Positions 13,662 to 37,810 of a stretch of DNA of 64,000 bases are shown piece after piece. The notes below the pieces were generated by a model. That model was not told the origin of the DNA. It saw nothing but the letters and a program-made list of their open reading frames with translations, and searched no databases. This DNA is from Longimicrobiales bacterium (GTDB lineage Bacteria; Gemmatimonadota; Gemmatimonadetes; Longimicrobiales; Gaopeijiaceae). Position numbers and translations under genes: made by a program. The stretch lies in assembly GCA_965204735.1 (NCBI GenBank), contig OZ242008.1:64001-128000 (forward strand), in the 5' to 3' direction. Each line of letters begins with the position of its first letter. Position 1 is the stretch's first letter.

Positions 13662-16066
13662 CAGGTCCCGTCCGGGCCCGTGATCTCGTACTCCTTCGGC
13701 GGCGCCTTGCCCAGCAGGTGCTCGACGAAGTAGTCCCATGTCCTGCGCACCACGTAGGGCTCGTTGGCGTAGCCGTGGTTGCGGTTCGGGAGGACGAACA
13801 TGTCGAAGTCCTTGTTGTGCTTGATCAGTTCGTCGACGAGACGGATCGTCATGTTCGGATGGACGTTGTCGTCCAGCGTGCCGTAGTGCAGCAGCAGCTT
13901 GCCCTCCAGATTGGCGGCCAAGTTCTGGTTCGCCTGGCTGTCGTAGTTGTCGGTTCCGTCCGGGTTCTCCTCCAGCAGGCCCTGGTACTTCTCGCCCCAG
14001 GGGAAGTGGTAGCCTCGGTTGTCGTGGTTGCCGGCGCCCGACACGGCGACCTTGAAGAAGTCCGGGTGTCGCAAGATCGCGTCCGTCGACGAGAAGCCGC
14101 CGCCGGAGTGACCGAAGATGCCGACCCGGCTCAGGTCCATCTGCGGATGCCGCCCCGCGAGTTCCTTCAGGGCGGAGATGTGATCGGGGATGCCGTTGTC
14201 GCCCATGTTGCCGTAGTAGCCGTCGTGGAACGCCTTGGAGCGCATCGGGGTTCCGAAGGCGTCCACGGCGAAGACGACGAAGCCCAGCTCGGCGAGCGCT
14301 CGGCCATTGCCCCGCCCGGCGGCCGAGAAGTCGTAGCGCGTCACGGCGCCGATCTGGGGACCCGGATAGATGTAGTCCACGACGGGGTAGCTTCGCGTCG
14401 GGTCGAAGTTCGACGGGAACCAGAGGAGGCCGTACACCGGAGTGGTCCCGTCCCTGCCCCGGGCTCGGAACGGCGTCGGCGGAACCCACCCGGCCTCCTG
14501 GAGCCGCGAGATGTCGCTCGTCTCGACAGTCAAGCGCACGTCGCCGTCTTGCCCGCGCACCACGGCCACGGGCGGTGCCTCCGGGGTGGAGTACGCGTCC
14601 AGAAAGTAGCGACCCGATGGCGATGCAATGATTCGATGGACCGCGTTCTCCGGCGTCAGCAGCCTTGTGCCGGAGCCGTCCAGGCCGACGCTGTACAGGT
14701 GCGTGAAGTACGGATGGCGACCTTCCTCGCGACCCGCCGCAGTGAAGTACGCCGTGCGGCTCTCCTCGTCCACTGCGATCAGCTCCGCCACGAGCCAGGG
14801 GCCTTCGGTGACCCGGTTCTTGAGCGTTCCGTCGCCGTCGTACAGGTAGAGGTGTCCGTAGCCGTCGCGTTCCGACCACCACACGAACTCGCTGCCGTCG
14901 CCAAGCGCCCGCCACGCCGGCGGCGAGTAGGTGAGCTGGTTGAGTTCCACGTAGGTCGGTCCGGCTTCTTCCAGCAGCAGCGTTGCGGCGCCCGTTGCCG
15001 CGTCCACCTTGTACAACTTGTACGTCTTGAAGTCGCGGCTCCGATGGGTATAGAAGACGTGGCGGCCGTCGGCGGTCCATTGCACGTCCACGTACGCCGT
15101 GTCGCCCCGGGTGAAGAAGCCCGGCTGCGGCTCGACCTGGGCGCGCGCCGAAGTCGCGTTGTCGACGTCGAAGATCCAAAGCTCGGACGTGGGCACGACC
15201 GAATCGCCGGGAAGCGCGTACGCCCAAGAATGCAAGATCGGTCGGCCGTCGGCGGCTTCCAGCAGATGAAAGCGCTCCACGTTGCGTTCGTCGTAGCGAT
15301 GCGTGGCGATGCGCCGAGAATCCGGCGACCACTGAAGAACTGGCGAGCGCTCGCGCCCCTGCCGTCGGCTGGTGATCTCCTGGCAGCACCCTTCGGGAAC
15401 GGCGCCGTAGCCGAACTCCGCCTCTCCGTCGCGGCTCAGCTGGGTTTCGTCGCCGCCGGTCTCCCTGACCCAAAGGTTGTCGTCCCTGACAAAGGCCACC
15501 CAGCGTCCGTCGGGCGACGGTCTTTCGGCGTCGGACGGCCGCGGGATCGAGTCGGGTCCCGAGCAGGCGTAGTCGACGACGTCGCAGGTCCAGCGCGCGG
15601 AGTCCGCCACGTGAAAGCGTATCGTGCCGCCCCCGTCCACGAAGTCGAACTCGTCGAAGGGCAGCTTGGCGCCTTCGTAGGCCGTGTCCGCCGCCAACGA
15701 GAGAGCAGCCGCCAAGCGGGCGTGGTCGAAGGCCGGGGCGCGAGAGGCGGCGGCCGGATCCACCACGACGAACTCGTGACCCGTGGACGTCTTGCTTCGG
15801 AACCAGAAGCGGTCGCCGTCGAAGAACTCGGGAACGACCTGGTCGCCGGAGACCAGCTTGGCCGCGTGCCACGGCAGGAACTGCTCGGCTCGCGCGTAGT
15901 CCCGCTCGGTGACCCGCCCGTCGGCCTGCCCGAGAGCGGGTCCGGGCGCCGCAATGGTCGGAAGGGCGGCGAGGGCGAAGAAGACGATGCCGACGAGCGA
16001 AAGCGCGGGCTGCGGCGTCGGCGGGTACGTCGATTCGGGTTCTTGCACTGCTGGGTTCGTCGTCAT
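13661..16066 (-). CDS. S9 (DPP-IV-like) serine peptidase, secreted
   Basis: Signal peptide, DPP-IV N-terminal propeller, nucleophile motif GHSGGG, 'DDNVH' and 'NHG'. Confidence 0.92.
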   Translation of the reverse strand: MTTNPAVQEPESTYPPTPQPALSLVGIVFFALAALPTIAAPGPALGQADGRVTERDYARAEQFLPWHAAKLVSGDQVVPEFFDGDRFWFRSKTSTGHEFVVVDPAAASRAPAFDHARLAAALSLAADTAYEGAKLPFDEFDFVDGGGTIRFHVADSARWTCDVVDYACSGPDSIPRPSDAERPSPDGRWVAFVRDDNLWVRETGGDETQLSRDGEAEFGYGAVPEGCCQEITSRRQGRERSPVLQWSPDSRRIATHRYDERNVERFHLLEAADGRPILHSWAYALPGDSVVPTSELWIFDVDNATSARAQVEPQPGFFTRGDTAYVDVQWTADGRHVFYTHRSRDFKTYKLYKVDAATGAATLLLEEAGPTYVELNQLTYSPPAWRALGDGSEFVWWSERDGYGHLYLYDGDGTLKNRVTEGPWLVAELIAVDEESRTAYFTAAGREEGRHPYFTHLYSVGLDGSGTRLLTPENAVHRIIASPSGRYFLDAYSTPEAPPVAVVRGQDGDVRLTVETSDISRLQEAGWVPPTPFRARGRDGTTPVYGLLWFPSNFDPTRSYPVVDYIYPGPQIGAVTRYDFSAAGRGNGRALAELGFVVFAVDAFGTPMRSKAFHDGYYGNMGDNGIPDHISALKELAGRHPQMDLSRVGIFGHSGGGFSSTDAILRHPDFFKVAVSGAGNHDNRGYHFPWGEKYQGLLEENPDGTDNYDSQANQNLAANLEGKLLLHYGTLDDNVHPNMTIRLVDELIKHNKDFDMFVLPNRNHGYANEPYVVRRTWDYFVEHLLGKAPPKEYEITGPDGT

Positions 16067-17169
16067 CTGGGTTCCTTGATGCGGCGTGCTATTTCACCGT
16101 GGTCGCGTCGGTCGGCGCGCACCTGCTGGTCCTCGTCCTTCGTCAACACGTAGACCGCCGTCTTGGCGCGGTGGTCGGCGTGCTCTTCCTGATCGAGCAG
16201 CCGGCCGATGCTTCGCAGCACGTCCATCCGCTGGGTCGTGACGAACAGTTGCGTCTTCTGGGCGGCGCAATGCTCGAAGAGGAAGTGCAGCACCGGACGG
16301 ATCGAGCTGCCGTGAAGGCCGTTCTCGATCTCGTCGATCATGAGAACGCTCTCGTTGTCCAGTATGCACGCCGTCGCCATGTAGACGGCCCTTACCAGCC
16401 CGCTGCCGAACATGCTGAGCGGCATCATACGGTCGTAGCCCGCGTCCACGTAGACCGTGCTGTCGTGCGTGGCGATTCCGCAAACGTTGGGATTTACCAT
16501 GCGCAAGCATTCAAGGACGACGTCGGCCTTCTTGCTCACGACGACGCTGGCGATCGCGGTGGAGTCGTAGGAGTAGCCGGCGTGCACGTATCGAACGGGG
16601 ATCGCGCGCTCTCCGGACGCCAAGGTGGACCCCGGCTCCGTGCTGGTGGTGACCTTGCCGTCGCTTGCGGCGACTTCTCCGCAGAAGATTTCGGTGTTTC
16701 CCGACGCCAGCTCTATGATTTCGCCGTCGCACCGCAGGACCCGCGGGCGGTAGGGAAGCGACGAACGGACGGCCGCGGCGTAGTCGCCTTGGTTGCCGTT
16801 TGTGGTTTCGGCGACTTGCTGCGCTTCGACGACGTCTCCGTCCACGTAGGCTGCCGTGACGTTCAGCCGCCGATGGTCTGCGCCGGTGGTGGCGGCCGTT
16901 TCGATTGTTCCACTCGCGTTGAGGCCGTGAAAGAGCAACGCCAAGTCGTTGAAGTCGCTGACCAGGTGGCCTCGCAAGTTTTGCATCCGCACGAACAACT
17001 GGGGGCTGGAGAGACCGGCAACGAGGAAGACGGCCTCCAGCACAGAGGTCTTGCCCACGTCGTTGGCGCCCAAGATCAGATTGAACTGTCCGATCTCTTC
17101 CAAGTACAGATCCTGGAGTCCACGAAACCCAGAAACGTTGATCGTGGTGAAGTGCTGCTTGCTTTTCAT
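16063..17169 (-). CDS. AAA_15/AAA_21-type ABC-like ATPase (standalone)
   Basis: 'SGFRGL', Walker A GANDVGKT, signature-like FGSG, Walker B LMIDEIENGLH. Confidence 0.85.
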   Translation of the reverse strand: MKSKQHFTTINVSGFRGLQDLYLEEIGQFNLILGANDVGKTSVLEAVFLVAGLSSPQLFVRMQNLRGHLVSDFNDLALLFHGLNASGTIETAATTGADHRRLNVTAAYVDGDVVEAQQVAETTNGNQGDYAAAVRSSLPYRPRVLRCDGEIIELASGNTEIFCGEVAASDGKVTTSTEPGSTLASGERAIPVRYVHAGYSYDSTAIASVVVSKKADVVLECLRMVNPNVCGIATHDSTVYVDAGYDRMMPLSMFGSGLVRAVYMATACILDNESVLMIDEIENGLHGSSIRPVLHFLFEHCAAQKTQLFVTTQRMDVLRSIGRLLDQEEHADHRAKTAVYVLTKDEDQQVRADRRDHGEIARRIKEPR

Positions 17170-17187
17170 GGCGTCGTCCGTCCTGTC

Positions 17188-17215
17188 GGGGCAAGGGGCA
17201 AGGGGCAAGGGGCAA
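17188..17215 (+). repeat. (GGGGCAA)4 heptamer tandem repeat / potential G-quadruplex
   Basis: Four perfect copies, read directly. Confidence 0.9.
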
Positions 17216-17351
17216 GACGCGCAAGATCAGGCACCGGGAAGCGGGCGGCGAGATCGCGGCCCGACCACTGTACCATGCGGCGGCCCGCCGTGCAATGTTC
17301 GGACGGCCCGACGGGCTCCCTTCGGCTGGCCGCCCAGAGTACCTTCCCGCC

Positions 17352-19376
17352 ATGGACAGCCCCGCCTCCGCCATGGACCACTCGCCATCGCCCGTCGCCG
17401 ACCCTCGTTCCACCTACGCCGAACGGATCGCACGCTTCGACGAGGCCGCCGCCCTGGCCGACACGAGTGTCCGGAACTACGGACGCCTTCGGTTGGCGAC
17501 CTTCGCGGCTGCCGTCGCCGGTCCGTGGTTCTCCTTCGCGGCCGGGCGCAACGTCGTCGCCTGGGGAGCGGTTGCGGTCGCGGCGACGACGTTCGGGTTC
17601 CTGGTGAGGGGCCAGCGGCGCGCCAGGCGCCGTCGCCGACTCGCCGAGCTGACAGCGGACGCGAACCGTCGGGGCATTTCGCGACTGGACCGACGCTGGG
17701 ACGACCTGCCCCCGCCGGGGGACGACTTGCCTCCGCCGGGGGACGACTTGCCTCCGCCCGGGGACGACTTGCCCCCGCCGGGGGAGAAGGCGCGCCACGA
17801 GGAGTCCCCCGCCGTCGGACACGACTGCGCCGACGACCTGGACGTGCACGGTCGGGCCTCGCTGCTTCGGCTGCTCCACGTCGGCGGAACGCCCGAGGGT
17901 CGAGCGACGCTTCGCGGGTGGTTGTTGTCCGGGGCCGACCGGCAAAGCGCGGTTCACCGGCAGCAAGCCGTGACGGAAATGGCCGCGGCCTTCGACTTTC
18001 GGGACGGCTTGGCCGCCGAAGCCGCGCTGGCGATGGAGCGTCGCGAAAAGAGGTCCGGTTCGGCCCAAGCGCCGCGTCCCGACGCAGGGACCGGTCGCTT
18101 CCTTCGGTGGGCGGAAGGGGACGGACGCATGCGCGGGCGCCGACGGCTCCTCCTTGCCGCCGTGATCCTGCCGCCCGTCAACGTGACGGCTCTCGCGCTG
18201 TACTTGCTGGGAGTCGTCCCCAGTCCCGTTGTCGCGTGGCCCGTGCTTCTCTCGCTGGTGATTCTCGGGGCTTCCCGGAAGAGAACGAACCGCGCGTTCT
18301 CCGAGGCGAGCGACGGCGAATCGGGCGTTCGCGACTATGGACCTGTCCTTGCTCACCTGTCCAACCGTGGTTCCAGCCTGGAGTCGCGCTGCTTCGCCGA
18401 CGTCCTTGAGCGCCTGGGCGGCGAGGGCCAACGTCCGGACCGCGCCCTGGTCCCTCCGAACCGCGACGACGCTTCCAGCCGCCCGGCTCATCGAGAGATC
18501 GAGCGGTTGCGACGCCTTCTGGACATGGCGGACGCCCGGCGCGCGCCTCTCTTTCACCTTCCCCTGGCCCTCTTCCTTTTCTGGGACGTGCACGTGCTGG
18601 CGGCGCTGGAGCGGTGGAAGGCGCGATCGGGCCACCGCGTCCGGGGCTGGCTCGAAGCCATGGCCGAGGCCGAGGCGCTGGCCGCGTTGGCCGCTCTGGC
18701 GGCCGATCATCCCGACTGGACGATGCCGACACTCGACGACCGCGCCGCCACGGTGCGCGGACGCGCTCTCGGTCACCCGCTGCTTCCCCCCGAAGCCTGC
18801 GTCCGCAACGACGTGGAGGTCGGCCCGCCCGGCTCGTTCCTCCTGGTGACCGGCTCCAACATGTCCGGCAAGTCCACCCTGCTGAAGGCGATCGGCCTGA
18901 ACGTCGTGCTTGCCCGGGCGGGAGCGCCCGTGTGCGCCCGGTCGCTTCGGCTGCCGTCGCTGCGGGTGGCGACCAGCATGTCCGTCCGCGATTCGCTGGC
19001 CGACGGCGTGTCGCACTTCATGGCCGAACTCCAGCGGCTCAAGAGGGTCGTGGACGCCTGCGAGGCCGGCCCGCGCACCCTCTACCTGCTGGACGAGGTT
19101 CTCCAGGGGACCAACAGCGCCGAACGCCAGGCCGCCGCGCGGACGGTCCTGCGCCGGCTGCTGGCCTCGGGCGCCGTCGGCGCCGCGACCACCCACGACT
19201 TGGCGCTGGCCGACTCGGACGACCTTGCTACCCGCGCCGTTGCGGTTCACTTCACCGAAACGGTGACCGATGCCGGCGAGGGCGGCGGGAAGCTCGTCTT
19301 CGACTACCGCCTTCGTCCGGGAATCGCCACCTCGACCAACGCCCTTCGGCTGCTGGGCTTGGTCGGGCTGGAGTGA
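17352..19376 (+). CDS. Membrane-associated MutS-like ATPase (MutS domain V)
   Basis: Hydrophobic segments, 'TGSNMSGKST', 'SHFMAELQRL', 'LLDEVLQGTNS' and 'ATTHDL'. Confidence 0.9.
   Translation: MDSPASAMDHSPSPVADPRSTYAERIARFDEAAALADTSVRNYGRLRLATFAAAVAGPWFSFAAGRNVVAWGAVAVAATTFGFLVRGQRRARRRRRLAELTADANRRGISRLDRRWDDLPPPGDDLPPPGDDLPPPGDDLPPPGEKARHEESPAVGHDCADDLDVHGRASLLRLLHVGGTPEGRATLRGWLLSGADRQSAVHRQQAVTEMAAAFDFRDGLAAEAALAMERREKRSGSAQAPRPDAGTGRFLRWAEGDGRMRGRRRLLLAAVILPPVNVTALALYLLGVVPSPVVAWPVLLSLVILGASRKRTNRAFSEASDGESGVRDYGPVLAHLSNRGSSLESRCFADVLERLGGEGQRPDRALVPPNRDDASSRPAHREIERLRRLLDMADARRAPLFHLPLALFLFWDVHVLAALERWKARSGHRVRGWLEAMAEAEALAALAALAADHPDWTMPTLDDRAATVRGRALGHPLLPPEACVRNDVEVGPPGSFLLVTGSNMSGKSTLLKAIGLNVVLARAGAPVCARSLRLPSLRVATSMSVRDSLADGVSHFMAELQRLKRVVDACEAGPRTLYLLDEVLQGTNSAERQAAARTVLRRLLASGAVGAATTHDLALADSDDLATRAVAVHFTETVTDAGEGGGKLVFDYRLRPGIATSTNALRLLGLVGLE
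17700..17783 (+). repeat. In-frame 21-bp tandem repeat x4 (DDLPPPG)
   Basis: GACGAC(C/T)TGCC(C/T)CCGCC(G/C)GGG repeated four times. Confidence 0.95.
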
Positions 19377-19403: not shown

Positions 19404-20954
19404 TCAGAGACCCGAGCGCCAGCGGTTGACTGCGTCCGTCAAGTCCCTCATCAGCGGCTGAACCTGGCTCGCCTCGCGCTTGGCTTCCATGGAAGCGACC
19501 AAGCGACACAGATCGGCGGAGCTCCTGCGGAATGACTCGGCGAGGTTCTCCACCTTGTACTTGGCTGCCTCCGACGGCTTGCCGGACGTGTGGTCGAAGG
19601 CCGCTTCGAGTCGCCTCGTCTGCTTGGCCAGGTCGTTGGGTTCGACGCCGAGCAAGCGGGCGGCGTCCGGAGCGCTCCGCAGCTTCTCCCAAACCCATGC
19701 CTCGGGAGTCGAGTCGCCCGGCAGGAAGAAGACGGGAACGTCCTGTTCCGCCGCCCTGCGAATCTTGTCGTCGTCGTCATGGCCCCGCCGGTCTCCGTCC
19801 AGCACGAAGACGACGTTGTCGATCTGGCCGAACTTCCTCATGGCTCTGGCGTGCGCCGGAAACTCGCCGGCGCCCGTGTCCCGACCCACCTTGATCGACT
19901 CCCGGTTGATTCTGTCGCGCGCCGCGATCTGGTCCACCAGACCCCACAAGATCGCTTCCGCGGCGGCGTCCTCGCACAGCACGTTCAGCGTGCGGGCCGA
20001 CCTGCCGTAGAGCGCGTCCTGCACGATGTCCCGGTACGCGGGCACGACCGAAACCCTGCCTTCCTCGTCTCTCTCCAGGAATACTCGCCCCGCGGGCGGC
20101 ACCGAGTTCAGCACGACGGAGCTGTGCGAGGTCACGATGACCTGAAGGTTGTTCTGCAGCGCCAGCTTCTGAAGCTGCAACATGAGGAGTTGCTGAACCC
20201 ATGGATGCAGGCCGGCCTCCACTTCGTCCACCAGCACCAGTCCGTCCTTCATGTGGGCGATCTTCTGCGACAAGCGGATGATTGCCCGTTCCCCGGCCGC
20301 CATGTGCAGCTCCGAATACTTCGCGCCTCCTTCTTGAACGGCGAAGAGGAGGTTCTTCCGGTCGCTGGAAAGGCTCAGGACCTCGGCGTACCGAAACGGA
20401 ACCATGCGCTGCGCAAAGTCGATCTCCCAGGGCGTAAGCGCCGTCTCGTCAGGGGGGGAAGGCAGGTGGGACATGGCCAGCACTCCCCGCACCTCGGAAG
20501 GGTTGGTCAAGTTGGCCAATGTCCGAAGGTACACGAGCCGCTCCGGCTGCGCTGCGCCCTTGCGTCCGAAGTAGCTGCGGTTCCAGCTCTTCAAGCGTCC
20601 CCACCGCATCGACCGACGGCCGTCGGGCGTCGAGTACTCGAAGTCCATCACAACCTTGCCCCGTTCGTCCCACCGGTCGCCGACCTTGGCGCGAAAGTCG
20701 GGGAAGAGCGTGGAGGGAACGAACTCCCGCACCCCTGCCCCTGGGACCTTGTAGGCGCACGCGGCGGCAAAGAGAACCGTCGACTTGCCGCTGGCGTTGC
20801 CGCCGCCGATCACGGTCACCGGGTACTCGAATGCGGTCCGAAGGCCGTCGATGCCGCGGAGCCCCTCGATGTAGACTTCGGACAGGAAGTGGGGCATCTG
20901 GGGCTTCTTGGCCTGCAGGCGAGTCCACATCTCCTTCAACTGCTTCTCGATCAT
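19404..20954 (-). CDS. ABC/AAA_21 ATPase fused to a TOPRIM-like domain (OLD-like ATP-dependent nuclease)
   Basis: GGAGGAG RBS; Walker A GGNASGKS; 'MAAGE'; Walker B LVDEVEAGLHP; H-loop TSHS; C-terminal 'CED...LDGD' TOPRIM acidic motifs. Confidence 0.82.
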   Translation of the reverse strand: MIEKQLKEMWTRLQAKKPQMPHFLSEVYIEGLRGIDGLRTAFEYPVTVIGGGNASGKSTVLFAAACAYKVPGAGVREFVPSTLFPDFRAKVGDRWDERGKVVMDFEYSTPDGRRSMRWGRLKSWNRSYFGRKGAAQPERLVYLRTLANLTNPSEVRGVLAMSHLPSPPDETALTPWEIDFAQRMVPFRYAEVLSLSSDRKNLLFAVQEGGAKYSELHMAAGERAIIRLSQKIAHMKDGLVLVDEVEAGLHPWVQQLLMLQLQKLALQNNLQVIVTSHSSVVLNSVPPAGRVFLERDEEGRVSVVPAYRDIVQDALYGRSARTLNVLCEDAAAEAILWGLVDQIAARDRINRESIKVGRDTGAGEFPAHARAMRKFGQIDNVVFVLDGDRRGHDDDDKIRRAAEQDVPVFFLPGDSTPEAWVWEKLRSAPDAARLLGVEPNDLAKQTRRLEAAFDHTSGKPSEAAKYKVENLAESFRRSSADLCRLVASMEAKREASQVQPLMRDLTDAVNRWRSGL

Positions 20955-21165
20955 TGGCGGCTCCTCCGAGGGGTGGTCGGCGTCCGTCGGTTCGTGTCCG
21001 GAGTCGGTCGCTGGCCGGCGGTCGGCGTCCGGCAACCAGTCGACTGGCCTCCTTCGGTCGGATCGCAAGCGCAAGCGGGCGAAGCACCGGAGCCGACGTC
21101 CGCGTCGCGCCGCGCGGGGCGACCAGCCTCGGTCCTGGGAGGCCCTGGCGCACCGGCCCACCGGC

Positions 21166-21178
21166 ATAGTACTATACT
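21166..21178. promoter_or_regulatory. Putative overlapping divergent -10 elements
   Basis: AT-rich palindrome ATAGTACTAT with TATACT on + (towards sdh) and TATAGT/TACTAT on - (towards the OLD-like gene), in a GC-rich background. Confidence 0.4.
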
Positions 21179-21312
21179 GCTCGCCGGTCGGGCCAGCCGC
21201 TCGCCATGGCCGGCGGCCGCCGTTGGTCCAGCGCCCGTCGCCGGTTCCGCCGCCTTCCACTGCTGGGCCGGCCCCCCGTTCCTCCCAATCGACTGGATGC
21301 TTCCCCGCCCAA

Positions 21313-22125
21313 ATGGAACGCACCCTCGCGACGGTACCTGCGCCCCCGGCGGTGTCTCGGCGCCGGTTCCTGCGGACTGCCCGGACCGACCGCTGGTGGA
21401 GCAAGCCCCTTGCCGTCTTCCTTGGCTTGACGGCCTTCATCGTCTACTCCACCTGGGCCGCCCTCCAGAACGCCCACTTCGAGTTCGAGGGCTACCTGTC
21501 GCCCATGTACTCGCCCCTGATCTTCGGCGAGTCGCACCACGCCGTCCTCGGCGCCCTGCCGACGTGGTGGCCCGCTTGGCTGCCCTTCTACCCGGCGTTT
21601 CTGATCCTGTGGGCGCCCGGCGGCTTCCGCTTCACCTGCTACTACTACCGGGGGGCGTACTACAAGTCCCACTGGGCGTCTCCCGCCGGCTGCGGCGTCG
21701 GCAAAGCGCAAAAGAACTACCGGGGCGAGCACTCGTTCCCACTGATCTTCCAGAACCTCCACCGCTGGTTCCTCTACTTCGCGCTGGTGTTTCTGGTGAT
21801 CCTCTCCATCGACGTGTACCGGGGAATGTGGTTCGGCTCCGGCCACGACGAGTTCGGCATCGGCGTCGGCACGCTGGTCCTTGCCGCGAACGTCGTCCTC
21901 CTTTCGGGCTACACTTTCGGCTGCCACTCGTTGCGACATCTGATCGGCGGCAAGCTCAACGTGCTGTCGAAGCGTCCGGGCCGGCTGAAGGCGTGGAAGG
22001 GCGTGACGTGGTGCAACACGCGCCACCAGCTCTTTGCGTGGCTGAGCCTCTTCTGGGTCGGCTTCACCGACTTCTACGTGCGCATGTGCTCGATGGGCGT
22101 CTGGACCGACTTGAGGATCGTCTGA
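21313..22125 (+). CDS. Succinate dehydrogenase membrane anchor (Sdh1/actinobacterial type)
   Basis: Multi-TM protein with 'FRFTCYYYRGAYY', 'NLHRWF' and 'GCHSLRH' motifs, immediately upstream of the flavoprotein subunit. Confidence 0.85.
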   Translation: MERTLATVPAPPAVSRRRFLRTARTDRWWSKPLAVFLGLTAFIVYSTWAALQNAHFEFEGYLSPMYSPLIFGESHHAVLGALPTWWPAWLPFYPAFLILWAPGGFRFTCYYYRGAYYKSHWASPAGCGVGKAQKNYRGEHSFPLIFQNLHRWFLYFALVFLVILSIDVYRGMWFGSGHDEFGIGVGTLVLAANVVLLSGYTFGCHSLRHLIGGKLNVLSKRPGRLKAWKGVTWCNTRHQLFAWLSLFWVGFTDFYVRMCSMGVWTDLRIV

Positions 22126-24841: not shown

Positions 24842-26323
24842 ATGCTGAAGCGACTGAAACTCTCCAACTTCAAGGTCTGGAATGAACTGAGTCTGCCGCT
24901 AGGTCGGGTGACCGGGCTCTTCGGTGGAAACAGTTCCGGCAAGAGCAGCATCCTTCAGTTCCTGTTGATGCTGAAGCAGACGAAGAACGCCTCGGATCGC
25001 AGCGTGGTGTTGCACTTCGGGGATCGGGATCGTGGCGACTTCGTGGAGCTGGGCGGCTTCAGGGACATCGTGCATCGCAACGACAGTTCGCGGACGATTT
25101 CATGGGCGCTTGAGTGGGGACACGACCACGTGACGATCGGGGATCCGCAAGGAAGTCGCAGGGAGACACTGTACGACTTTGATTCCTTGCTGACGGAATG
25201 CGCCGTGCACATGTACGGTGGGGACATACGGCCGTATATGCTGAAGTATGTGTTCGAGTCGGGCAGCTTTTCCGTTATGGCTGACCAAGACTCGCCCAAG
25301 TACGCCCTCGATGGAGGCGACTATTCGTTCCTGCGCAACCAGGGCCGGCCTTGGGGGCTTCCCGGTCCCGTGAAGACTCACTTGTTTCCGGACCAAGCCA
25401 AGACATACTACCAGAACACCGGCTTTCTGAGTGTGTTCGAAACGGAATACGAAAGGCTGATGGATCGCATCCACTACCTCGGACCGCTCCGAGAGGGTCC
25501 ACGGCGCGAGTACTTCTGGTCCGGCACCAGCCCTCACGACACAGGGGTTCGTGGCGAGCGAACGATTGAGGCCATACTGTCTGCGACCAAGAAGGGCGAG
25601 ACCAGGAATCTGGCACGATACAAGCACCGTAAAGAATTTCAGGAGATGATCGGCTACTGGCTTGATCAGCTTGGGCTGGCCACTGAGTTCGGCGTCGCGG
25701 AAATCGCTTCTGAAAGCAATCTCTACCGGGCAGCCGTCAGGAAGGACGAGGCCAGCGCAGAGGCTGTGTTGCCGGATGTTGGCTTCGGCGTCTCTCAGGT
25801 CTTGCCGGCGCTTGTCTTGCTGTACTATGTGCCACGTGGTTCCATTGTGCTGATGGAACAGCCGGAGATCCACCTTCACCCTTCGGCCCAAGGGGGATTG
25901 GCCGACGCAATCCTGTCGGCCGCCAAAGCCCGCGACCTTCAAGTCATTGTGGAGAGCCACAGCGAACACCTCTTACGGCGACTGCAACTTCGTGTTGCGA
26001 CGGAAGAAGCCTCATCCGATGAAGTCAAACTTTATGCTACGAACGTCCTGGACGGTGTGGGCTCTGTTTCGGATTTGGATCTCACTCCGCTCGGCGAAAT
26101 CAGAAATTGGCCGACACACTTCTTCGGGGACGAAATGGGCGAGATTACCGCGATTCGACGGGCCACGCTCGAGCGACGGTTGCAAGTCGGCGAGGGTCAG
26201 GTAATTGTCGATGTCGATCAGGCGAGGGCAGTGCCTGGCCGGCGTGTTCCGGCCGGCGACGACTCCAACAGGCCGAGCTACGGCGTGTCCAAGCTGGCCA
26301 GCGCTGCGACGCCGGCGGCGTAG
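24842..26323 (+). CDS. AAA ATPase with C-terminal DUF3696-like domain
   Basis: 'SNFK', GGNSSGKS, 'YLGPLR', 'DVGFGVSQVLP', 'EQPEIHLHP', 'ESHSEH', 'GEIRNWPTHFF'. Visibly lower GC than the flanks. Confidence 0.85.
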   Translation: MLKRLKLSNFKVWNELSLPLGRVTGLFGGNSSGKSSILQFLLMLKQTKNASDRSVVLHFGDRDRGDFVELGGFRDIVHRNDSSRTISWALEWGHDHVTIGDPQGSRRETLYDFDSLLTECAVHMYGGDIRPYMLKYVFESGSFSVMADQDSPKYALDGGDYSFLRNQGRPWGLPGPVKTHLFPDQAKTYYQNTGFLSVFETEYERLMDRIHYLGPLREGPRREYFWSGTSPHDTGVRGERTIEAILSATKKGETRNLARYKHRKEFQEMIGYWLDQLGLATEFGVAEIASESNLYRAAVRKDEASAEAVLPDVGFGVSQVLPALVLLYYVPRGSIVLMEQPEIHLHPSAQGGLADAILSAAKARDLQVIVESHSEHLLRRLQLRVATEEASSDEVKLYATNVLDGVGSVSDLDLTPLGEIRNWPTHFFGDEMGEITAIRRATLERRLQVGEGQVIVDVDQARAVPGRRVPAGDDSNRPSYGVSKLASAATPAA

Positions 26324-27618
26324 CCGATCTGCGGAGGAACCGCTCTGCCGATCATATTCGAGACGTTGGTTCTCGACAGGGGCGCTCCGCTGACCATTCT
26401 GAACTCGAAGGTGTCGGGGAATCCCTGGATGCGGGCTGCTTCATGGGGTGTGATGGTCCTGCGCAACTGGGGATGTATGTACCTTCCACGCCCGGGTGTG
26501 TTGAACCCGGTGGTTATGGTACCGGCTGGCTTGTCCCAGCGAAGTCTTCCATAGATCGACGGATACGTGTGGCCGTCCTTGTGGCAGTCGGGACGCCAAT
26601 CGTTCGGCAAGTCGAACAGGTCGTGGCTGAACAGGTAGTCGATCCTCTCTCGATTGATCGCTGACAGCTCCGCCGGCGCATCCAAGAAACCGCGGGGCTC
26701 GCGCTCCAGGAGGTCGCCGATCACCCAGCGCAAGTCTCGTTCCGGGCGCGCCAGAGCTTGGACGGCCGCTTCCAGCTCCGGCTGTCCATCGACCGAAGCA
26801 ACGAGGATGTGCCGCTTTCGCGTCTGCGGCAATCCGAGACGCCTCGCGTCGATCACCGCCTCGTCGACGTAGTACTCCCGCGACTCGAACAGCGCTCGGG
26901 CCTCGTCGAGTATCCCCCGGCGGTCGTGTCGTATCCCGGGCACGTTCTCGATGATCACCGCCCTTGCGCCCAGCGCCACGGCCAAGGCCGGCATTGCCAC
27001 GTAGTACATGTTGCGCCCGTCCGACCGAAGAGTGACGTTGTTGGACGTCGAGTGTCCTTCGCACGGCGGTCCACCCAGCAAGATGTCCACTCGGCCGGCG
27101 GCAAGACGCATCGGCCCGTCCAACGGCCTGGGGTCTTCCACGAACCTGGCGGTTCCGTTCCGATAGGAATAGCTGGTGGTCACCGAGGTCCAGATGTTGC
27201 GCGACGAGCAGTACTGCGGATCGAAGTTCCTCCGGTACACGTCCAGCGCGACCGCGCTGTTGTCTGCCGCGAAGACGAACTCGGGCGCCATGCCAGCCGC
27301 GAGCACGGCTTCGCGCACGCCGTGCGACAGTCCCCCGGCCCCGCAGAACACGTCGGCAATCTCGACACAGCGTCGCCCGGAAAGCGACTCGTGCTCCACT
27401 TCGCCGCGCAGCAGCGCATGGTCGAACTGGGACTGCAACGACGCGACTTCGGACCCGTCCACGCCAGCGTCGCTGCGACACGACGATTCTCCCGACGCGC
27501 TGGGCACCTCCAGGCTTCTGACGATGCGCGAGTCGTCAAGGCGAAACGTCTCGCAGACGGCCTTGCCTCCCAGCGCCAACGATCCCTGGCGCACCCTTCC
27601 CGCAATTCTACCGGGCAC
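26278..27618 (-). CDS. DNA (cytosine-5)-methyltransferase
   Basis: Motif I DVFCGAGG, IV GGPPCEGHS, VI ENV, VIII QTRKR, IX 'RIQGFPD', X 'GRAVPP'. Confidence 0.93.
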   Translation of the reverse strand: MPGRIAGRVRQGSLALGGKAVCETFRLDDSRIVRSLEVPSASGESSCRSDAGVDGSEVASLQSQFDHALLRGEVEHESLSGRRCVEIADVFCGAGGLSHGVREAVLAAGMAPEFVFAADNSAVALDVYRRNFDPQYCSSRNIWTSVTTSYSYRNGTARFVEDPRPLDGPMRLAAGRVDILLGGPPCEGHSTSNNVTLRSDGRNMYYVAMPALAVALGARAVIIENVPGIRHDRRGILDEARALFESREYYVDEAVIDARRLGLPQTRKRHILVASVDGQPELEAAVQALARPERDLRWVIGDLLEREPRGFLDAPAELSAINRERIDYLFSHDLFDLPNDWRPDCHKDGHTYPSIYGRLRWDKPAGTITTGFNTPGRGRYIHPQLRRTITPHEAARIQGFPDTFEFRMVSGAPLSRTNVSNMIGRAVPPQIGYAAGVAALASLDTP

Positions 27619-28363
27619 GTCTCAGGTCCTGGCTGTGCTTCTCCAGCACCGCCCGAAGTTCTTGATCGCTCATGAACTCGAACGCATACACGCTGTGAAT
27701 GTGTCGAAGTCGCTTGTATAGCTTGCGGATGCCGAGAGCGTCTGTGCTGTGAAGGTAGACCTCTTTCGACTTTGGATGACGGTATTGAAACTTCACGAGG
27801 ACGCGCGCCAAGTTTCTGCACCAACCATACCTGTGCCGGATGATCCCCGATTCTATGAAGTCGGAGTGCAGAAACCTCTTCGCCAGACGATAGGGGTCGG
27901 AAGCGGCGGCATCGTACAGCATGTCCGCCCGCAACCAGAGTATCCGAAGCCGATTCCTGTAGTCCAAGGCGTCGATGCCGTAGTTTCCGAGGTGGGCGTA
28001 CACGCCCCTGCGGTGTCGCGCTTCAATGACGTCTGACAGCTTCGCCACGGCCAGCCATCTCCAAAAACCGTCCGACGCCGCCACTTTCGGAGGCAACCGC
28101 ATCTCTTTGTGCATCAGCGAGCAGACGTCTCGATCGAAGTTGAATGCGTCCACCGTTTTGCTGTCACTTTCGAGTTCGTCCAGGAGCTTCATAACTTTGG
28201 TGCAAGCACTGTCCACAAAGGCGGGGTTCCAGCTAGTTCCAGCTTCTATCGTAGGACAATCCCGATCAAGCAGCTTCTCCGGCATACCGCGGCGCCGTGC
28301 CTCGACAAGGCTCCGTGCCCTCTCGTTGGACAGCGTTCTCGCACCGCTTGAAGCGTTCGCCAT
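27608..28363 (-). CDS. Hypothetical protein, DUF6339-like
   Basis: Operonic ORF overlapping the MTase start; 'FWRWLA...NRLRILWLR' resembles DUF6339 as recalled, not verified. Confidence 0.6.
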   Translation of the reverse strand: MANASSGARTLSNERARSLVEARRRGMPEKLLDRDCPTIEAGTSWNPAFVDSACTKVMKLLDELESDSKTVDAFNFDRDVCSLMHKEMRLPPKVAASDGFWRWLAVAKLSDVIEARHRRGVYAHLGNYGIDALDYRNRLRILWLRADMLYDAAASDPYRLAKRFLHSDFIESGIIRHRYGWCRNLARVLVKFQYRHPKSKEVYLHSTDALGIRKLYKRLRHIHSVYAFEFMSDQELRAVLEKHSQDLRRAR

Positions 28364-28380
28364 CAGCAGCTCTTCACCCC

Positions 28381-29343
28381 CTACCCGACTACGCCGACGA
28401 TCGTGGCGACGTGGGACCGAAGCTCCAGCAGCCCGTCCTCCTTCACCAGATCCCGGAGGTCTCCGTAGTTCCTGCCGCTCGCCCTTGCAAGGCGGTCGAA
28501 CACCTGCCCCGCCAGCGTCTCGGTGTCGGTCGGTTCCGGATCATCCGACGTGCCCCTCAGCACTTCGCACCATATCTGAACAACGATCTCCGCTGCCAGC
28601 ATCTTCCACACCAAGTCCCGTTGGCCTGGGACGGCGTTCAGCGCGTTCAGGCCTTCTTCAGCGGCCTTGTTCATATAGACGGTGAGCGCTTCGCCTATCG
28701 GGCGCGAGTAGCGGTCGTCGCCCGTGGCGTCTTCTTCCCACTTGATCGCCCACAGCAGTTCTCGCGGATAGCCAGTGTCGCCGCCGAACTCTCGCCAGCT
28801 GAACGGGAACGCGACCGCGTCGATGCGCTGCCGGACTGCAAATTCTCTCCTGCACAAGACCTTCCCTGGGCCAAGGCCGCGTTTCGCCAGTGTCGGATCG
28901 TCGGCAACGATGCGGATGGCCAGAATGAACTCCATGCCGCCGCCCGTCTGCATCTCGTCCAAAGCCTCGGGCGCAGGCGACCATTGCTCCGGACGCTTGG
29001 CTAGGCTCCACCGTCCGAGACGCTTGTATCGCTTCAGGCGTCTGTTCCTGGCCGACACGGCGAGTTCCAACTGCGACTCTTCCAGTGCAAGGCTGGTCAG
29101 TACCTCGTCGACGCCGTCCACCGTGAAGACGAAGAGCGGTTCGATCAGCCGCTCCGTTTCGGCAGGTTCAAGGTAGTACGACGGCTCTGTCGTCGGCTCA
29201 CGCGAAAACGGACAGAACTCGCAACCCTCGAGGAGCCCGTCGAGCCGGTTGGAGAGTTGGTTCGGGCTGAGGCCGTCCCCGAACGGTGGAAGCAGCCTCC
29301 GCTCCACCCGTCGCCGACCACGCTTCTCGACATTGGCGCTCAA
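28381..29343 (-). CDS. Hypothetical protein in GHKL-MTase operon
   Basis: TTG start overlaps the upstream TGA (TTGA). About 320 aa, acidic, no recognised motif. Confidence 0.7.
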   Translation of the reverse strand: MSANVEKRGRRRVERRLLPPFGDGLSPNQLSNRLDGLLEGCEFCPFSREPTTEPSYYLEPAETERLIEPLFVFTVDGVDEVLTSLALEESQLELAVSARNRRLKRYKRLGRWSLAKRPEQWSPAPEALDEMQTGGGMEFILAIRIVADDPTLAKRGLGPGKVLCRREFAVRQRIDAVAFPFSWREFGGDTGYPRELLWAIKWEEDATGDDRYSRPIGEALTVYMNKAAEEGLNALNAVPGQRDLVWKMLAAEIVVQIWCEVLRGTSDDPEPTDTETLAGQVFDRLARASGRNYGDLRDLVKEDGLLELRSHVATIVGVVG

Positions 29344-31327
29344 CTCGACGACTCCTCGCTCTCGGGCCGACCGGCGTGCGGATCGTCGTCTGCCGACCAT
29401 GCTTCCGACCGGGCCGCTACGACTACGTCGAGGCTGGCATAATAGTCCGAGTTGAAGGACTCGGACGTCACGTCCACCACTATCTCCCGGTCCTTCCAAA
29501 CCACCAAGTCCACACCATCCGCGTGCGTGTCCACGCCGTCGCTGGCCAAGTCCGCCTCTTCGCCGTCGACGCGGAAGGACGCCAAGGGGATCCGTCCCGA
29601 TCCGTCGCGACGCCTGTTGTCGTCGAGTACGACGGCAGGAACGACCGACACACGTGCGAGCACTCTCTCCGCCGAAGCGTCTTCCTTCAGCTTGATTCCT
29701 ACGCGCGCCGTGGCCACCGACTCTGAACCGACGCTTTGTCGTCCCTCCCTGATCCGAATCTCAAAGGGGTCAGGGAGGACCGGAGGTGGTGGCGGCCGAC
29801 CCAGCTTCTCCGCCGACATCACGCTCGCCAGAATCTGCTCCAAGCGTCTCGATCCTCGCGCTACAGGAGGCTCCGGCTTGGGGTTGAGGTCCTTGAGGAA
29901 CTTCTGAGTGTGTTCTTTGATGCGACGCAGGATGCGCTCCACCAGCTTCTGGAGGAGCTCGCGCTTGGCCTGGTCGTCCGGGTACGCGTCCCGCAGTCTC
30001 TGAGAGTTGGGATTCCAGGTGTCATGCGAAGGCGGTTCCGATAGGTGAAGCGCCTCGTCGGCGTCGGGATCGCCAAGAAAAACGCCAACGCCCTTCTGAT
30101 CGCCGGCGCTTGGTAGTTTCAGGTATTTGACGACCATCAGGGGCCCGCTGCGAATCAGCGCCACCGAATTCTGGAATAGATCATCCGGCGAGTCGTCCGC
30201 TTCGATGGGCTGTTGATCGTCGGCACCTTTGAGGGCGAGTTGACCGGGTTGCAAACCCTGGAACCGGTGGAACTTCAGCTTCTTCTCGCGAGGCCCACTC
30301 AGCGGCACGCTGTGCTCGATCATCGTGTAGCAGGTGATGTGCGCCTCCAGTTCGGCGACGGCCAGGGGGGCCGGAGCGCGAACCAGATCGTTGTCCATGC
30401 ACAACTCGACGGTCAGCTTGTTGGAGAGCAAGCGTGGCCACCACCATTGCTCGACGGCGGTACGGAATTCGCCGATGTCGATCGACGACCCGATGATCAT
30501 GATCGAAGTGCCGTGCTCGTCGCGGGTTCTCGTGAACCCGACCTGTTCGGCGATTTCGTGCGCCATATCGTCGACGATCGGCCTGCACACCGGTTGTCCA
30601 CCCTGTCGGTCCTCATGGACGCCAAAGAGAGCGCGGCCTGTGTACTTGCGAGCCGCGGAGTCCCTGCTCCCTGCCGAGCGCGCCTCGTTCCCCTTCCACC
30701 AATGGCCGTCGAACGTGGCGCAGGCGAAGAGCCGCGCGTGGTGGCCACCTGTCTTCGCGCTGGGCTCGAAAATGGAATACACGACGAACATGTTGCAGTC
30801 CGACGCCTCCTCGTAGACCGCCTTCCCCAAGCCGTACGACCCGCCCTTGCCGGAAGACACGCTTGTCGTGTCCTGCCCCAGCGAAAGGCAAAGCTCCTCG
30901 AAACGATCCTTCTTGTCCCGCTCGTCGTATCCCAATCCGCAAGTGTTGCGATCTTCGACTATGGTCACCTGAACGGGTACGCCGTCGCGCAGTCGAGTCA
31001 GCGCGTTCGGAGACGAAAGACCGAGTTTCTCCAGCCGAGCGAGGGGAGAGTCGATCGCATCGAAGCCAAGAAGCTTGCGGAAGGCCGTCACCTCTTGACG
31101 CGAGAGCGTCATGTTCCGTATCAGGACCTCGGTCTTCGTGTCCGGCAGCGTGGCATCGACACTATTCTGGATCGCCTCCCGCGCGACGCGTGCTGCTGTG
31201 TCGTGACCAGAGCCTTCCAATGCGAAGCGCCGAGCCGTTGACTTGATTCGCTCGTTCGGGTTTTCCTCAACGAACAGCCAAGCTGGCTGGTCGGAGCGTG
31301 ATCGGGGGGGGGGGGGGGGGGCGACAT
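29340..31327 (-). CDS. GHKL (Hsp90/MORC-like) ATPase-domain protein; out of frame at the C18 tract if the ATG at 31327 is the start
   Basis: N-box 'REAIQNSVDA', G1 'EDRNTCGL', G2 'GGSYGLGK', G3 'GTSI'. The long frame is open from 31511 to 29340, but its first ~60 codons look non-coding. Confidence 0.78.
31304..31321 (+). repeat. G18 homopolymer (C18 on the coding strand)
   Basis: 18 consecutive G, counted directly. Confidence 0.95.
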
Positions 31328-31528
31328 GAAGGCGGGCAAGGCAGCAAGCAGGAGAGGACGTTGCGAAAAGAAGCAGTAAGTTACGAAGCTCGGACGGCTC
31401 CCGCAAGCGGGGGCCACAGGCGACTCCAGCAGCCGGCCGCGGCGGTTTCCACAAGTGGGATCGTAGGCGATTTCCGCAGGCGGTGCTCAGCCGCTTCCCG
31501 CAAGCGGCCACGAACGGAGGCCCCTCGA

Positions 31529-35820: not shown

Positions 35821-36507
35821 TCACGGTTCCCCCAAGCTCTCCATCCGCTCCATCCAGGCATTGAAGTTCGGACAAGCTGCACGGATTTCGTGAAGTCCGA
35901 TCCGCGAGGCAGCGACTAATCCGTCAGCGACCTTCTGATACCCGGGTGCGACCTCCAAGATGCGCTTGGACGGCGCCGTGGATACGCCATCGTCGATCTC
36001 CTCTGGCGTGCCGAAGCGGCTCATGACTTGATGGAATCGCCGCACGGCCCGGTCTTGTTGAGAACCAAGCGACACTACCCTTCCCAGAACCTCTGGTGCG
36101 GCAAACAACAAGGCCTCAAACTCATGCAACTGCACATACGGTATGAACGCATCGGGGCGCCAGTGCTTCCCCACTATTCCCTCCATCCTTGCGTACATTT
36201 CGTTTTCGATTTCAGTGGCCTTCTGGCCATGGGGCCTGCGAGCCGCGGCCGCCCGTCCTGGCCAATCAAGCGGCATGCCGTAGTAGTCGAACATCGTCGT
36301 CACGTGACGGCCGCCATCCTCCTGAAGCAATCGACGCAGTTCCTTCTCTGTTTGTTTCCATGACTTCACTCCGCCTGTGACGCGAGGCCTGCCCATGGTG
36401 GTCGTTTGCAAGTGGACGCCTCTGTTGCCCAAGAACGGTGCAATCAATTCGTTGCAGAATCTTTCTTCTGTCTGGCCTTCCACCAACGCCAGGATCCGCA
36501 CACTCAA
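35821..36507 (-). CDS. DUF4276-family (TOPRIM-like) protein
   Basis: 'VEGQTEERF', 'TTMFDYYG', 'HEFEALLF', 'PEEIDD...APSKRI', 'CPNFNAW'. TTG start overlaps the ATPase stop. Confidence 0.85.
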   Translation of the reverse strand: MSVRILALVEGQTEERFCNELIAPFLGNRGVHLQTTTMGRPRVTGGVKSWKQTEKELRRLLQEDGGRHVTTMFDYYGMPLDWPGRAAAARRPHGQKATEIENEMYARMEGIVGKHWRPDAFIPYVQLHEFEALLFAAPEVLGRVVSLGSQQDRAVRRFHQVMSRFGTPEEIDDGVSTAPSKRILEVAPGYQKVADGLVAASRIGLHEIRAACPNFNAWMERMESLGEP

Positions 36508-37654
36508 GGACGACCTCCAAACAGGTTCTTTTCCCACAGTTCGCTGAGCGAGTAGTCCTCCAGCCACTCCGTCAGGGCTTCTTCGGCTAGTCGCTTGTAC
36601 TGGGTACCGGACTTGGCGTCCGCTTCAAGCACGGCAATCTGGCTCGGCTTGAATTCGTCTACCAACCTAGTCGATTGAGTTGCCAGGATCACTTGCACCC
36701 TCGTAGCCGCGGATTTTGCCAGTGCCGCAAGCACGACTATGGCTGATGGATGAAGGCCAAGCTCGGGTTCGTCCAGCACGATCACGTTGGGAAGCCTGGG
36801 CTGGAGAAACAGCGTCGCAAGAGCCATGAAGCGTAAAGTTCCGTCGGAAATCTGATGCGGCCCAAGGAGATATTCATGTCCCCTCTCGTGCCAGTTCAGC
36901 AGTATCTTGTTAGGATCCGTGGTTCGTGGACCCAAATCGAATCCACCGAACGCGGGAAACGCCAAGCGGATGGTCTCCTCAATCCGGCGGTAGCATTCTA
37001 GATCGGTCCGCTCCAGCCCATGGAGAAACGCGGCCAAGTTGCCGGCATCGTCTCGCAAGTACCGATTGTCCTCGATGTACGCGCTCTTGCGAATGTTGGC
37101 ACGAAACGACGTATCGTGAAACTGGTATCCTCGACAAAGGGAAAGCAGCCACAGCACCACGTCGCATGTCTTGTTGCCTTCGTCCCGCTTCTCCTGCAGC
37201 CGGCTTTCCCCGTGGCCGGAACCAAGCAGGAGCCGCTGGGGCTGGGCATAGCCAGCACGATGGTATTCGACTCGTTCTTCGGCGAACAACATGGTGTCGG
37301 GAGCCGCATCCATGAGTCGCATGTGGTATGTGGTGGTGGTCTTCTCATATGCGCCGTCAGCGCCACCGAACTCGACCTCGGCACGCATCTGCGGAGTCGT
37401 CCTGGCTCCGTAGCGCAAAAGCGATTCTGATCCGCCCTCCCGGCCGATGTAGAGTTGAAGGCTATTCGTGCTTACAAATCCGAGCATCCGGAAGAAAGAC
37501 ACAAGGTTGCTCTTTCCAGATCCATTGGCCCCGAGCAGCACCGTGATGTCGCCGAAATCAACCCTGCTTGACGCGAACGACTTGTAGCCCTCGATGGCGA
37601 TGCTGTTCAGCCTGCTTGTCTTGCTCTCGGTGCCGTCGGTCAAGGAATGCTCCA
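36504..37654 (-). CDS. AAA_21-family ATPase, partner of DUF4276
   Basis: 'GYKS', GANGSGKSN, 'SDGTLRF', 'LDEPELGLHP', 'ATQS', 'LSELWEKNLFGGRP'. Confidence 0.9.
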
Positions 37655-37810
37655 TGTGTTCCGCGGAACGTTGGGGTGGGGCGTCAGCCTGCGCCAAAGC
37701 CTCGCACGCTGTTCGAGGGGGTTCGTAAGCTAGGAACGGTCATAGCGAAACCTTGGATCGCCGTCCCTGGGCGTCAAGCCCCCTCGGGGGAGGTTGAATC
37801 CGCTCGTGCC

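Follow-up and report, generated by a model that had tools for sequence, protein, structure and literature searches.

A divergent PDC-M33-like cassette with a candidate phase-variable GHKL ATPase gene in a Longimicrobiales genome

The cassette and its four products

The window analysed here is a stretch of 64,000 nucleotides from a Longimicrobiales genome of the phylum Gemmatimonadota (assembly GCA_965204735.1, contig OZ242008.1, positions 64,001 to 128,000). Between sdhAB and a nucleotidyltransferase gene it holds a cassette of four co-oriented open reading frames (ORFs) on the minus strand, within 26278..31511, encoding a GHKL-type ATPase, a 320-aa protein that we call B', a DUF6339 protein and a C5 cytosine DNA methyltransferase (Table 1). 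An earlier note, made from the letters of the sequence alone, had described four tightly coupled genes with atypical codon usage, and the ORF lists confirm the spacing it gave (a 4-bp overlap, a 17-bp gap and an 11-bp overlap). The codon usage is likewise distinct, the G+C content at third codon positions (GC3) being 0.70-0.80 in the four genes and 0.93, 0.90 and 0.81 in the flanking genes for sdhA, a symporter and the nucleotidyltransferase, respectively. Neither a tRNA gene nor a flanking direct repeat, as marks of an integration site, was found around the cassette.

Table 1. Features of the cassette and of its surroundings, in window coordinates
Feature	Position	Strand	Evidence or remark
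GHKL (Bergerat-fold) ATPase, distant PDC-M33A relative, ~660 aa	29340..31327 (ORF 29340..31511)	-	motifs I-IV, PADLOC, hhalign
Conserved ATG start of the ATPase gene	31325..31327	-	same place as the L004, L002 and L040 starts, just 5' of the PAWLF motif
Poly-C tract C18 (G18 on the + strand), candidate slipped-strand switch	31304..31321	-	length sets the frame
Putative promoter: TTGCGG (31406..31401), 17-nt spacer, TAACTT (31383..31378)	31378..31406	-	conservation alone
320-aa protein (B'), N-terminal beta-sandwich and C-terminal helical part	28381..29343	-	TTG start; predicted model
DUF6339 protein, 251 aa, all-alpha, distant PDC-M33C relative	27608..28363	-	Pfam, PADLOC, predicted model
C5 cytosine DNA methyltransferase, 446 aa, ~85-aa N-terminal extension	26278..27618	-	PF00145, PADLOC
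HEC-03-type ABC ATPase	24842-26323	+	PADLOC model HEC-03B, full length, 1.7e-191; converges on the methylase gene, 46-bp overlap
HEC-01 pair, complete, low-GC stretch (0.57-0.60)	35821..37697	-	ATPase 36504..37697, HEC-01A 3.7e-127; DUF4276 protein 35821..36567, HEC-01B 3.8e-70
PDC-M38A/AbiLi-like ATPase	16063..17208	-	PADLOC
Protein with MutS domain V only	17295..19376	+	ATPase-type
HEC-04-like ATPase	19404..21440	-	PADLOC, 7.3e-38

The first gene had been said to carry all GHKL boxes, and in a 30-sequence alignment the four Bergerat-fold motifs do lie on invariant columns: REAIQNSVDA, DRNTCGLG, GGSYGxGK and GTSIM, which we take to be motifs I to IV (N box, G1, G2 and GT). The invariant residues are E43, N47, D50 and A51; D118 and G123; G154, G155, G160 and K161; and G265 and T266. 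The protein has no match in Pfam or NCBIfam and no sequence-profile match in the PDB at E up to 10. Its sole PADLOC match is a weak one, to PDC-M33A (E 3.9e-10, residues 107-232). A profile comparison of its family with the typical PDC-M33A encoded at a related locus, L051, gave an hhalign probability of 94.6% over 257 columns, and the two have an N-terminal PAWLF motif in common. A further, distant GHKL-like match lies elsewhere in the genome (C1:3071345-3072211; 24% identity over 319 aa to the window ATPase).

The last gene encodes a complete, full-length C5 methyltransferase, as the earlier note had it. PF00145 matches residues 86-434 (E 7.8e-33, profile positions 2-317 of 324), the PADLOC models MTase_II and DruM match at 1.9e-85 and 5.5e-84, and TIGR00675 falls slightly short of its cut-off (96.7 bits against 100.65). 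FCGAGG, GPPCEGHS, ENV, QTRKR and GRAVPP are readable in the protein, and we take these to be the named motifs of such methylases. None of the four proteins matches a restriction endonuclease, Vsr, Z1 or helicase model in Pfam, PADLOC or NCBIfam, in agreement with the first description of the locus.

The assignment of the third protein as DUF6339-like is borne out by PF19866 (E 2.5e-11, 44.1 bits against a cut-off of 23.2). It is also matched weakly by PADLOC PDC-M33C (3.9e-5 and 2.8e-4) and has no NCBIfam match, and a second DUF6339 was not found in the genome (G000). Its predicted model has a mean predicted local distance difference test score (pLDDT) of 87.1 and no structural match above noise (Foldseek best E 0.81; VIA best Z 5.2, below the noise level for helical proteins). 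The rows of a PDB sequence-profile search were at chance level (best E 0.91), and the protein Atlas gave no usable match. The 320-aa protein is matched by nothing in Pfam, PADLOC (E up to 0.1) or NCBIfam, and none of 48 representatives of its family matches any PADLOC model. The family is small, with 65 close homologues and 146 representative clusters found by profile. In the predicted model (pLDDT 80.6) a beta-sandwich at about residues 26-173 is followed by a mostly helical C-terminal part, and only generic Ig/FN3-like structural matches, with Z up to 7.8, were obtained with Foldseek and VIA-align. A PDB sequence-profile search found nothing for this protein, and the protein Atlas returned only unnamed clusters of hypothetical proteins.

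The two small proteins are predicted to bind each other, with an interaction prediction score from aligned errors (ipSAE) of 0.85 compared with 0.00 at best in three controls; the ipSAE mark is reached by 116 of 157 solved complexes and by 2 of 215 mismatched pairs. At least 80% of the contacts are shared between the three runs, and the partners have pLDDT values of at least 87. On the side of the 320-aa protein the predicted interface draws on residues 64-165, within the beta-sandwich, and residues 99-108 are set against residues 175-183 and 224-231 of DUF6339. Residues 175-183 form a conserved loop whose prediction in the monomer is poor. Furthermore, in two related loci, L014 (9410-10735) and L015 (9410-10738), a single ORF fuses the N-terminal beta-sandwich half of the 320-aa protein in frame to a full DUF6339 protein. 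The fused part is the same as the one that forms the predicted interface, and this observation is independent of the complex model. In both fusion loci the ATPase is lost and the methylase and a Vsr gene are kept. The model thus supports binding of the 320-aa protein to DUF6339, as a predicted complex.

Relatives in two phyla and the relation to PDC-M33

Related loci were searched for in one genome per species, seeded by a DUF6339 alignment, and their gene content was determined by tblastn. This gave 18 loci from two phyla, three in metagenome-assembled genomes (MAGs) of Longimicrobiales and 15 in MAGs of Dehalococcoidia or other Chloroflexota. In 14 of the 18 the full set of four genes is present in unchanged order, so that the four-gene unit of the earlier note does recur elsewhere, and this repetition confirms a gene order beyond chance. 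The methylase is present in all 18 loci; L014-L017 lack a full ATPase. One of the other loci, L002, has the flank of the window (its symporter is 93% identical), and L004 does not. The cassette is horizontally acquired, and it is rare among the genomes searched: among 401 genomes sampled from the phylum of the window, the searches detected the ATPase in 3 and DUF6339 in 5, and two scans of metagenome contigs returned no relative.

The earlier note could not match the genes to a named system. The searches show that the cassette is a divergent branch of a predicted PADLOC candidate, PDC-M33, proteins 1 and 3 being distant relatives of PDC-M33A and PDC-M33C. As had been expected, PADLOC gave no full match: A and C are matched weakly and B not at all. 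Since the second gene matches no PADLOC model, we term the cassette a variant with a replaced B subunit. According to the part of the source available to us, the PDCs are 145 defence candidates identified by 'guilt-by-embedding' in BREX, DISARM or type I restriction-modification loci, as a prediction only (Payne et al., bioRxiv 10.1101/2024.01.29.577857). No mention of 'PDC-M33' or 'DUF6339' was found in the literature searched.

Two typical PDC-M33 operons were found around second DUF6339 genes in related genomes. That of L058 encodes a C5 methylase followed by A (1.1e-99), B (1e-39) and C (3.6e-36); that of L051 encodes A (3.2e-63), B (1.8e-33) and a C fused to an SspD-like PP-loop domain (5e-17), and then metK. 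The co-oriented order A-B-C is common to the window, 14 of the 18 loci, L051 and L058. Like these typical operons, the window has a trio that is led by a GHKL-type ATPase with a PAWLF-like start and ends with DUF6339; a C5 methylase lies in the same operon, as in L058, and a poly-C tract follows the ATG of the A gene, as in L051. In contrast, A and C of the window match their models only weakly, its middle protein has neither a match to the PDC-M33B model nor profile similarity to it, and its methylase gene lies at the 3' end, overlapping the DUF6339 gene, whereas that of L058 lies at the 5' end.

DUF6339 also occurs in other company. In L060, A-like genes and DUF6339 lie beside a cysteine desulfurase and PP-loop proteins, and in L059 an A-like gene and DUF6339 lie beside PbeA and PbeC. 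Further G/C tracts were seen in related Longimicrobiales (L060 9045-9055 and 16379-16397; L051 605-623), one of them within a PP-loop (SspD-like) gene that adjoins a DUF6339 gene, 6 nt from its start.

A Vsr gene lies beside the cassette in 11 of the 18 loci, in seven between DUF6339 and the methylase and in four after the methylase on the opposite strand, and in L050 and L061 DUF6339 adjoins Vsr without an ATPase, with a C5 methylase nearby in L050. Stimulation of Vsr by MutL is known from E. coli. A role in the repair of damage caused by 5-methylcytosine (m5C) can thus be considered, in which the ATPase would be MutL-like and would, with its two partners, aid Vsr-type repair of the T:G mismatches that arise from deamination of m5C. 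The retention of DUF6339 and the methylase in L014-L017, where the ATPase is lost, speaks for such a role as well. The window operon, however, has no Vsr, the only Vsr-like gene of the genome lying at ~1.67 Mb, and the trio of ATPase, B and DUF6339 is found with non-methylase partners too. A repair role would also leave the on/off tracts of the ATPase gene described below, the horizontal spread between phyla and the defence-rich neighbourhood unexplained, and we regard it as decidedly unlikely.

Homopolymer tracts in the ATPase gene

The coding sequence of the ATPase opens, on the minus strand, with ATG TCG and 18 cytosines, and the frame of this ATG closes after 68 codons. Tracts of C16, C19 or C22 would be in frame; the C18 of the window is out of frame, which explains why the first description spoke of a 'frame-restored' operon. 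The tract is the only homopolymer of at least 9 nt in the window, and it looks like a candidate on/off switch of the ATPase gene.

A tract is found at the same place in two orthologues, as ATG-C22 in L002 (out of frame) and ATG-T-C27 in L004 (in frame), and L040 (the G250 copy) has the same start without a tract. In the ATPase orthologues of Chloroflexota, tracts occur at three other places. A G21 tract lies in the loop after VFEP in L006, in frame; a G12 tract lies between FDGH and KYTGRA in L010, where the frame is broken at the tract; and the proline linker before DPF holds C15 in L003, C20 in L005 and C14 in L007, each with the frame break exactly at the tract. Altogether, 8 of 15 orthologous ATPase genes carry a G/C tract of at least 12 nt (12-27 nt) at one of four places, two in frame and six out of frame. 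A ninth tract is in the paralogous, typical PDC-M33A gene of L051, which starts with ATG-T-C26, in frame. Within the 18 loci, seven of eight tracts of at least 12 nt fall in the ATPase gene, which makes up 6.9% of the sequence (binomial tail 5.5e-8, for related genomes that are not independent).

The length of the window tract varies among contigs of public runs. In run X10 three short contigs span it with C17 (depth 85), C18 (depth 65) and C19 (depth 22), and in run X9, from the same sample, the main contig has C17. These calls rest on X9 and X10, as the contigs of X8 break at the tract and X11 gives no cover there.

Upstream of the ATG, by ~50-80 nt, a motif is conserved in four loci (the window, L004, L002 and L040) and reads CTTGCG(G/A)G, 17 nt, and TA(A/G)C(T/C)T or TAAATA. 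A consensus scan for sigma-70-like promoters upstream of the ATPase gene found no site, and we therefore infer a promoter from conservation alone. If the motif is a promoter, the in-frame GTG and TTG codons further upstream would not be transcribed. The same region holds two copies of a 23-nt element (31388-31410 and 31485-31507) that are 83% alike, the element containing CCGCTTGCGGGA. The proximal copy overlaps the putative -35 element, and the two could be operator sites.

Switching by homopolymer slippage is well known from the contingency loci of Neisseria, Haemophilus and Campylobacter, among them restriction-modification loci, and from the G-tract of pglX in Streptomyces (Pgl/BREX). As in those loci, a long G/C homopolymer lies in the 5' coding region of what would be a defence gene, with lengths that vary between strains and within a sample. 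Unlike in those loci, the tract is in the ATPase gene and not in a methylase or specificity gene, the host bacteria are Gemmatimonadota and Chloroflexota, free-living and of high GC content, and the tracts are very long (12-27 nt, and up to 36 elsewhere in the genome). A limited literature search for homopolymer phase variation in Gemmatimonadota returned no title on the subject.

The same observations may also be read as decay. In that case the ATPase gene would be a pseudogene whose C18 frameshift arose by mutation or in assembly, and the methylase, possibly together with DUF6339, would be the only active part. Besides that of the window, the ATPase genes of five further loci are out of frame, and four of the 18 loci lack the ATPase. 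Furthermore, the ATPase gene of L012 is frameshifted without any tract, and single stray stops occur in L009, L012 and L017, which means that errors or decay are present in these MAGs. These findings weigh against a switch and against any reading built on it, since six out-of-frame tracts among eight and four loci without an ATPase fit decay as well as switching. Homopolymer lengths in assemblies are unreliable, and laboratory slippage could contribute to the C17, C18 and C19 variants; both count on the same side. A decaying remnant is nevertheless very improbable. Apart from the tract, the ATPase ORF stays open for 653 codons with its motifs invariant, run X10 contains the in-frame C19 allele, and the genes of L004, L006 and L051 are in frame. 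Random decay, moreover, would not give tracts that recur at five sites in nine genes.

A possible restriction-like module and its surroundings

With moderate confidence, we favour a reading of the cassette as a phase-variable, ATP-dependent, restriction-like defence module that is guarded by its methylase. The C5 methyltransferase would label the DNA of the host as self. The GHKL ATPase would probably be a dimeric clamp driven by ATP, of the MutL or MORC kind; together with a heterodimer formed by the 320-aa protein and DUF6339 it would act on unmarked DNA, and the effector step would be cutting or trapping. Slippage of a G/C homopolymer directly after the start codon would switch the ATPase gene, and not the methylase gene, on and off stochastically; in this assembly the switch would read OFF.

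A restriction-like system in which the methylase marks self had already been proposed in the earlier note, and this proposal is partly supported by context, namely the conservation in two phyla, the island of lower GC3 among defence candidates and the nearest relative, itself a predicted defence candidate. The defence function and the self-marking are what we infer. The further suggestion that the two small proteins supply the effector found no support, as neither model has a nuclease fold.

The recurrent, independently acquired tracts in the ATPase gene imply that the activity of the ATPase is costly and under fluctuating selection, which is what would be expected of the attacking half of an immune system. 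It is conceivable, if doubtful, that the trio of ATPase, B and DUF6339 is a portable, nuclease-free immune module that combines a reader with a clamp. The heterodimer of DUF6339 and B would sense the presence or absence of the mark set by the partner (m5C or a sulfur-type mark), a MORC-like ATPase would trap unmarked DNA, and self-toxicity would be hedged by slippage in the ATPase gene only, a solution that would have evolved at least five separate times.

Several further points weigh against the restriction-like reading. Because DUF6339 served to find the loci, the set could contain no form that lacks it. The anti-phage role of PDC-M33 is itself only a prediction, and the 320-aa protein shows no profile similarity to the PDC-M33B of L051 (hhalign probability 0.6%). 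The desulfurase of L060 falls below every NCBIfam cut-off and the PP-loop proteins of that locus have no NCBIfam or Pfam assignment. Foldseek and VIA-align found neither a nuclease nor another effector fold in the models of the two small proteins. Phosphorothioation, considered as an established second partner, was downgraded to a lead, with the desulfurase below the cut-offs and most PP-loop matches covering the loop motif only.

A comparison with the nearest described systems turns on the same question of an effector. Iyer, Abhiman and Aravind (2008) reportedly placed prokaryotic MutL/MORC-type GHKL ATPases in restriction-modification contexts, in neighbourhoods that are said to include helicases and recognisable endonucleases. 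The window resembles these in that a mobile cassette encodes both a Bergerat-fold ATPase and a DNA methylase, and differs from such neighbourhoods in that the cassette has no helicase or endonuclease match. Compared with classical Type II restriction-modification, there is no match to a restriction endonuclease model beside the methylase and no nuclease fold in the two small-protein models; a nuclease of a kind not recognised by these models is possible. As far as the accessible parts of the two reports go, Tiamat (bioRxiv 10.64898/2026.09.30.754977) and VcSduA (PMC12137116) are single-protein GHKL anti-phage ATPases, modelled as a dimeric clamp that controls an effector, and carry a fused PD-(D/E)xK nuclease (NOV_C/DUF3883 or DUF4263). 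The window ATPase shares the GHKL type with them, with an anti-phage role that is known for theirs and proposed here. In contrast to them, it sits in a multi-gene cassette, and at the level of sequence models it matches neither the Tiamat nor the Shedu model in PADLOC and neither nuclease domain (NOV_C/DUF3883, DUF4263) in Pfam. Readings of the trio as Tiamat, Mza, Shedu, Druantia or DISARM were rejected, only methylase models having matched in PADLOC.

Cutting may not be needed at all. As a MORC-like silencer, the ATPase clamp would be aimed by B' and DUF6339, would compact or trap DNA depending on how it is methylated, and would block replication or transcription. This is consistent with the four intact GHKL motifs and with the lack of a nuclease match, both for the two small-protein models and among the families searched with all four proteins. 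It also agrees with part of a recent report in which MORC- and MutL-type GHKL proteins are dimeric clamps (bioRxiv 10.64898/2026.09.30.754977). On the other hand, the C-terminal ~350 aa of the ATPase hold the invariant residues H420, E423, H427, D561 and D562, which could form a metal site, and characterised defence GHKL proteins such as Tiamat and VcSduA carry nucleases. We consider a silencer unlikely.

The new elements are the recurrent tracts in the ATPase gene, their length variation, the predicted binding of B' to DUF6339 and the presence of Vsr beside relatives of the cassette. PDC-M33-type cassettes are widespread, as predicted defence candidates. This branch offers experimental handles in the predicted B'-DUF6339 heterodimer, a clear methylase partner and a DUF6339 protein that travels with a modification gene. 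With these tracts, moreover, the range of homopolymer phase variation would come to include Gemmatimonadota and Chloroflexota that are free-living and of high GC content.

Other defence candidates surround the cassette, with matches to HEC-03-type, HEC-04 and HEC-01 A and B proteins within 12 kb (Table 1). HEC-03 needs an ATPase and a PIN protein, and the ATPase is called HEC-03A, in the part of the paper at hand (bioRxiv 10.1101/2024.01.29.577857); the A and B labels differ between that paper and the PADLOC model. No PIN-domain ORF is evident in the ORF lists beside the HEC-03-type ATPase of the window. This ATPase was rejected as a fifth member of the cassette, as it lies near the cassette in only one of the 18 loci (L004, ~8 kb away).

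Long G/C runs are not confined to this locus. The genome of 4.14 Mb contains 18 runs of 8-11 nt and 27 of 12-36 nt, with a bimodal length distribution; examples of long runs in G000 are C1:2687460-2687477, 2079705-2079717 and 3424558-3424570. ORFs were scanned beside 20 of the 27 long runs, leaving out this locus and six runs with short or low-GC3 flanking frames. Eleven of the 20 have no Pfam match and mostly lie at ORFs of more than 1,300 codons, several with signal-peptide-like starts. The remaining nine have Pfam matches to Cas3, an MmeI/Eco57I-type methylase, an N6 methylase, DUF6998 (three runs), fn3, a helix-turn-helix regulator with a PBP-like domain and a GFO/IDH/MocA-type oxidoreductase. 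It seems that this free-living bacterium of 69% GC has contingency loci distributed over its whole genome.

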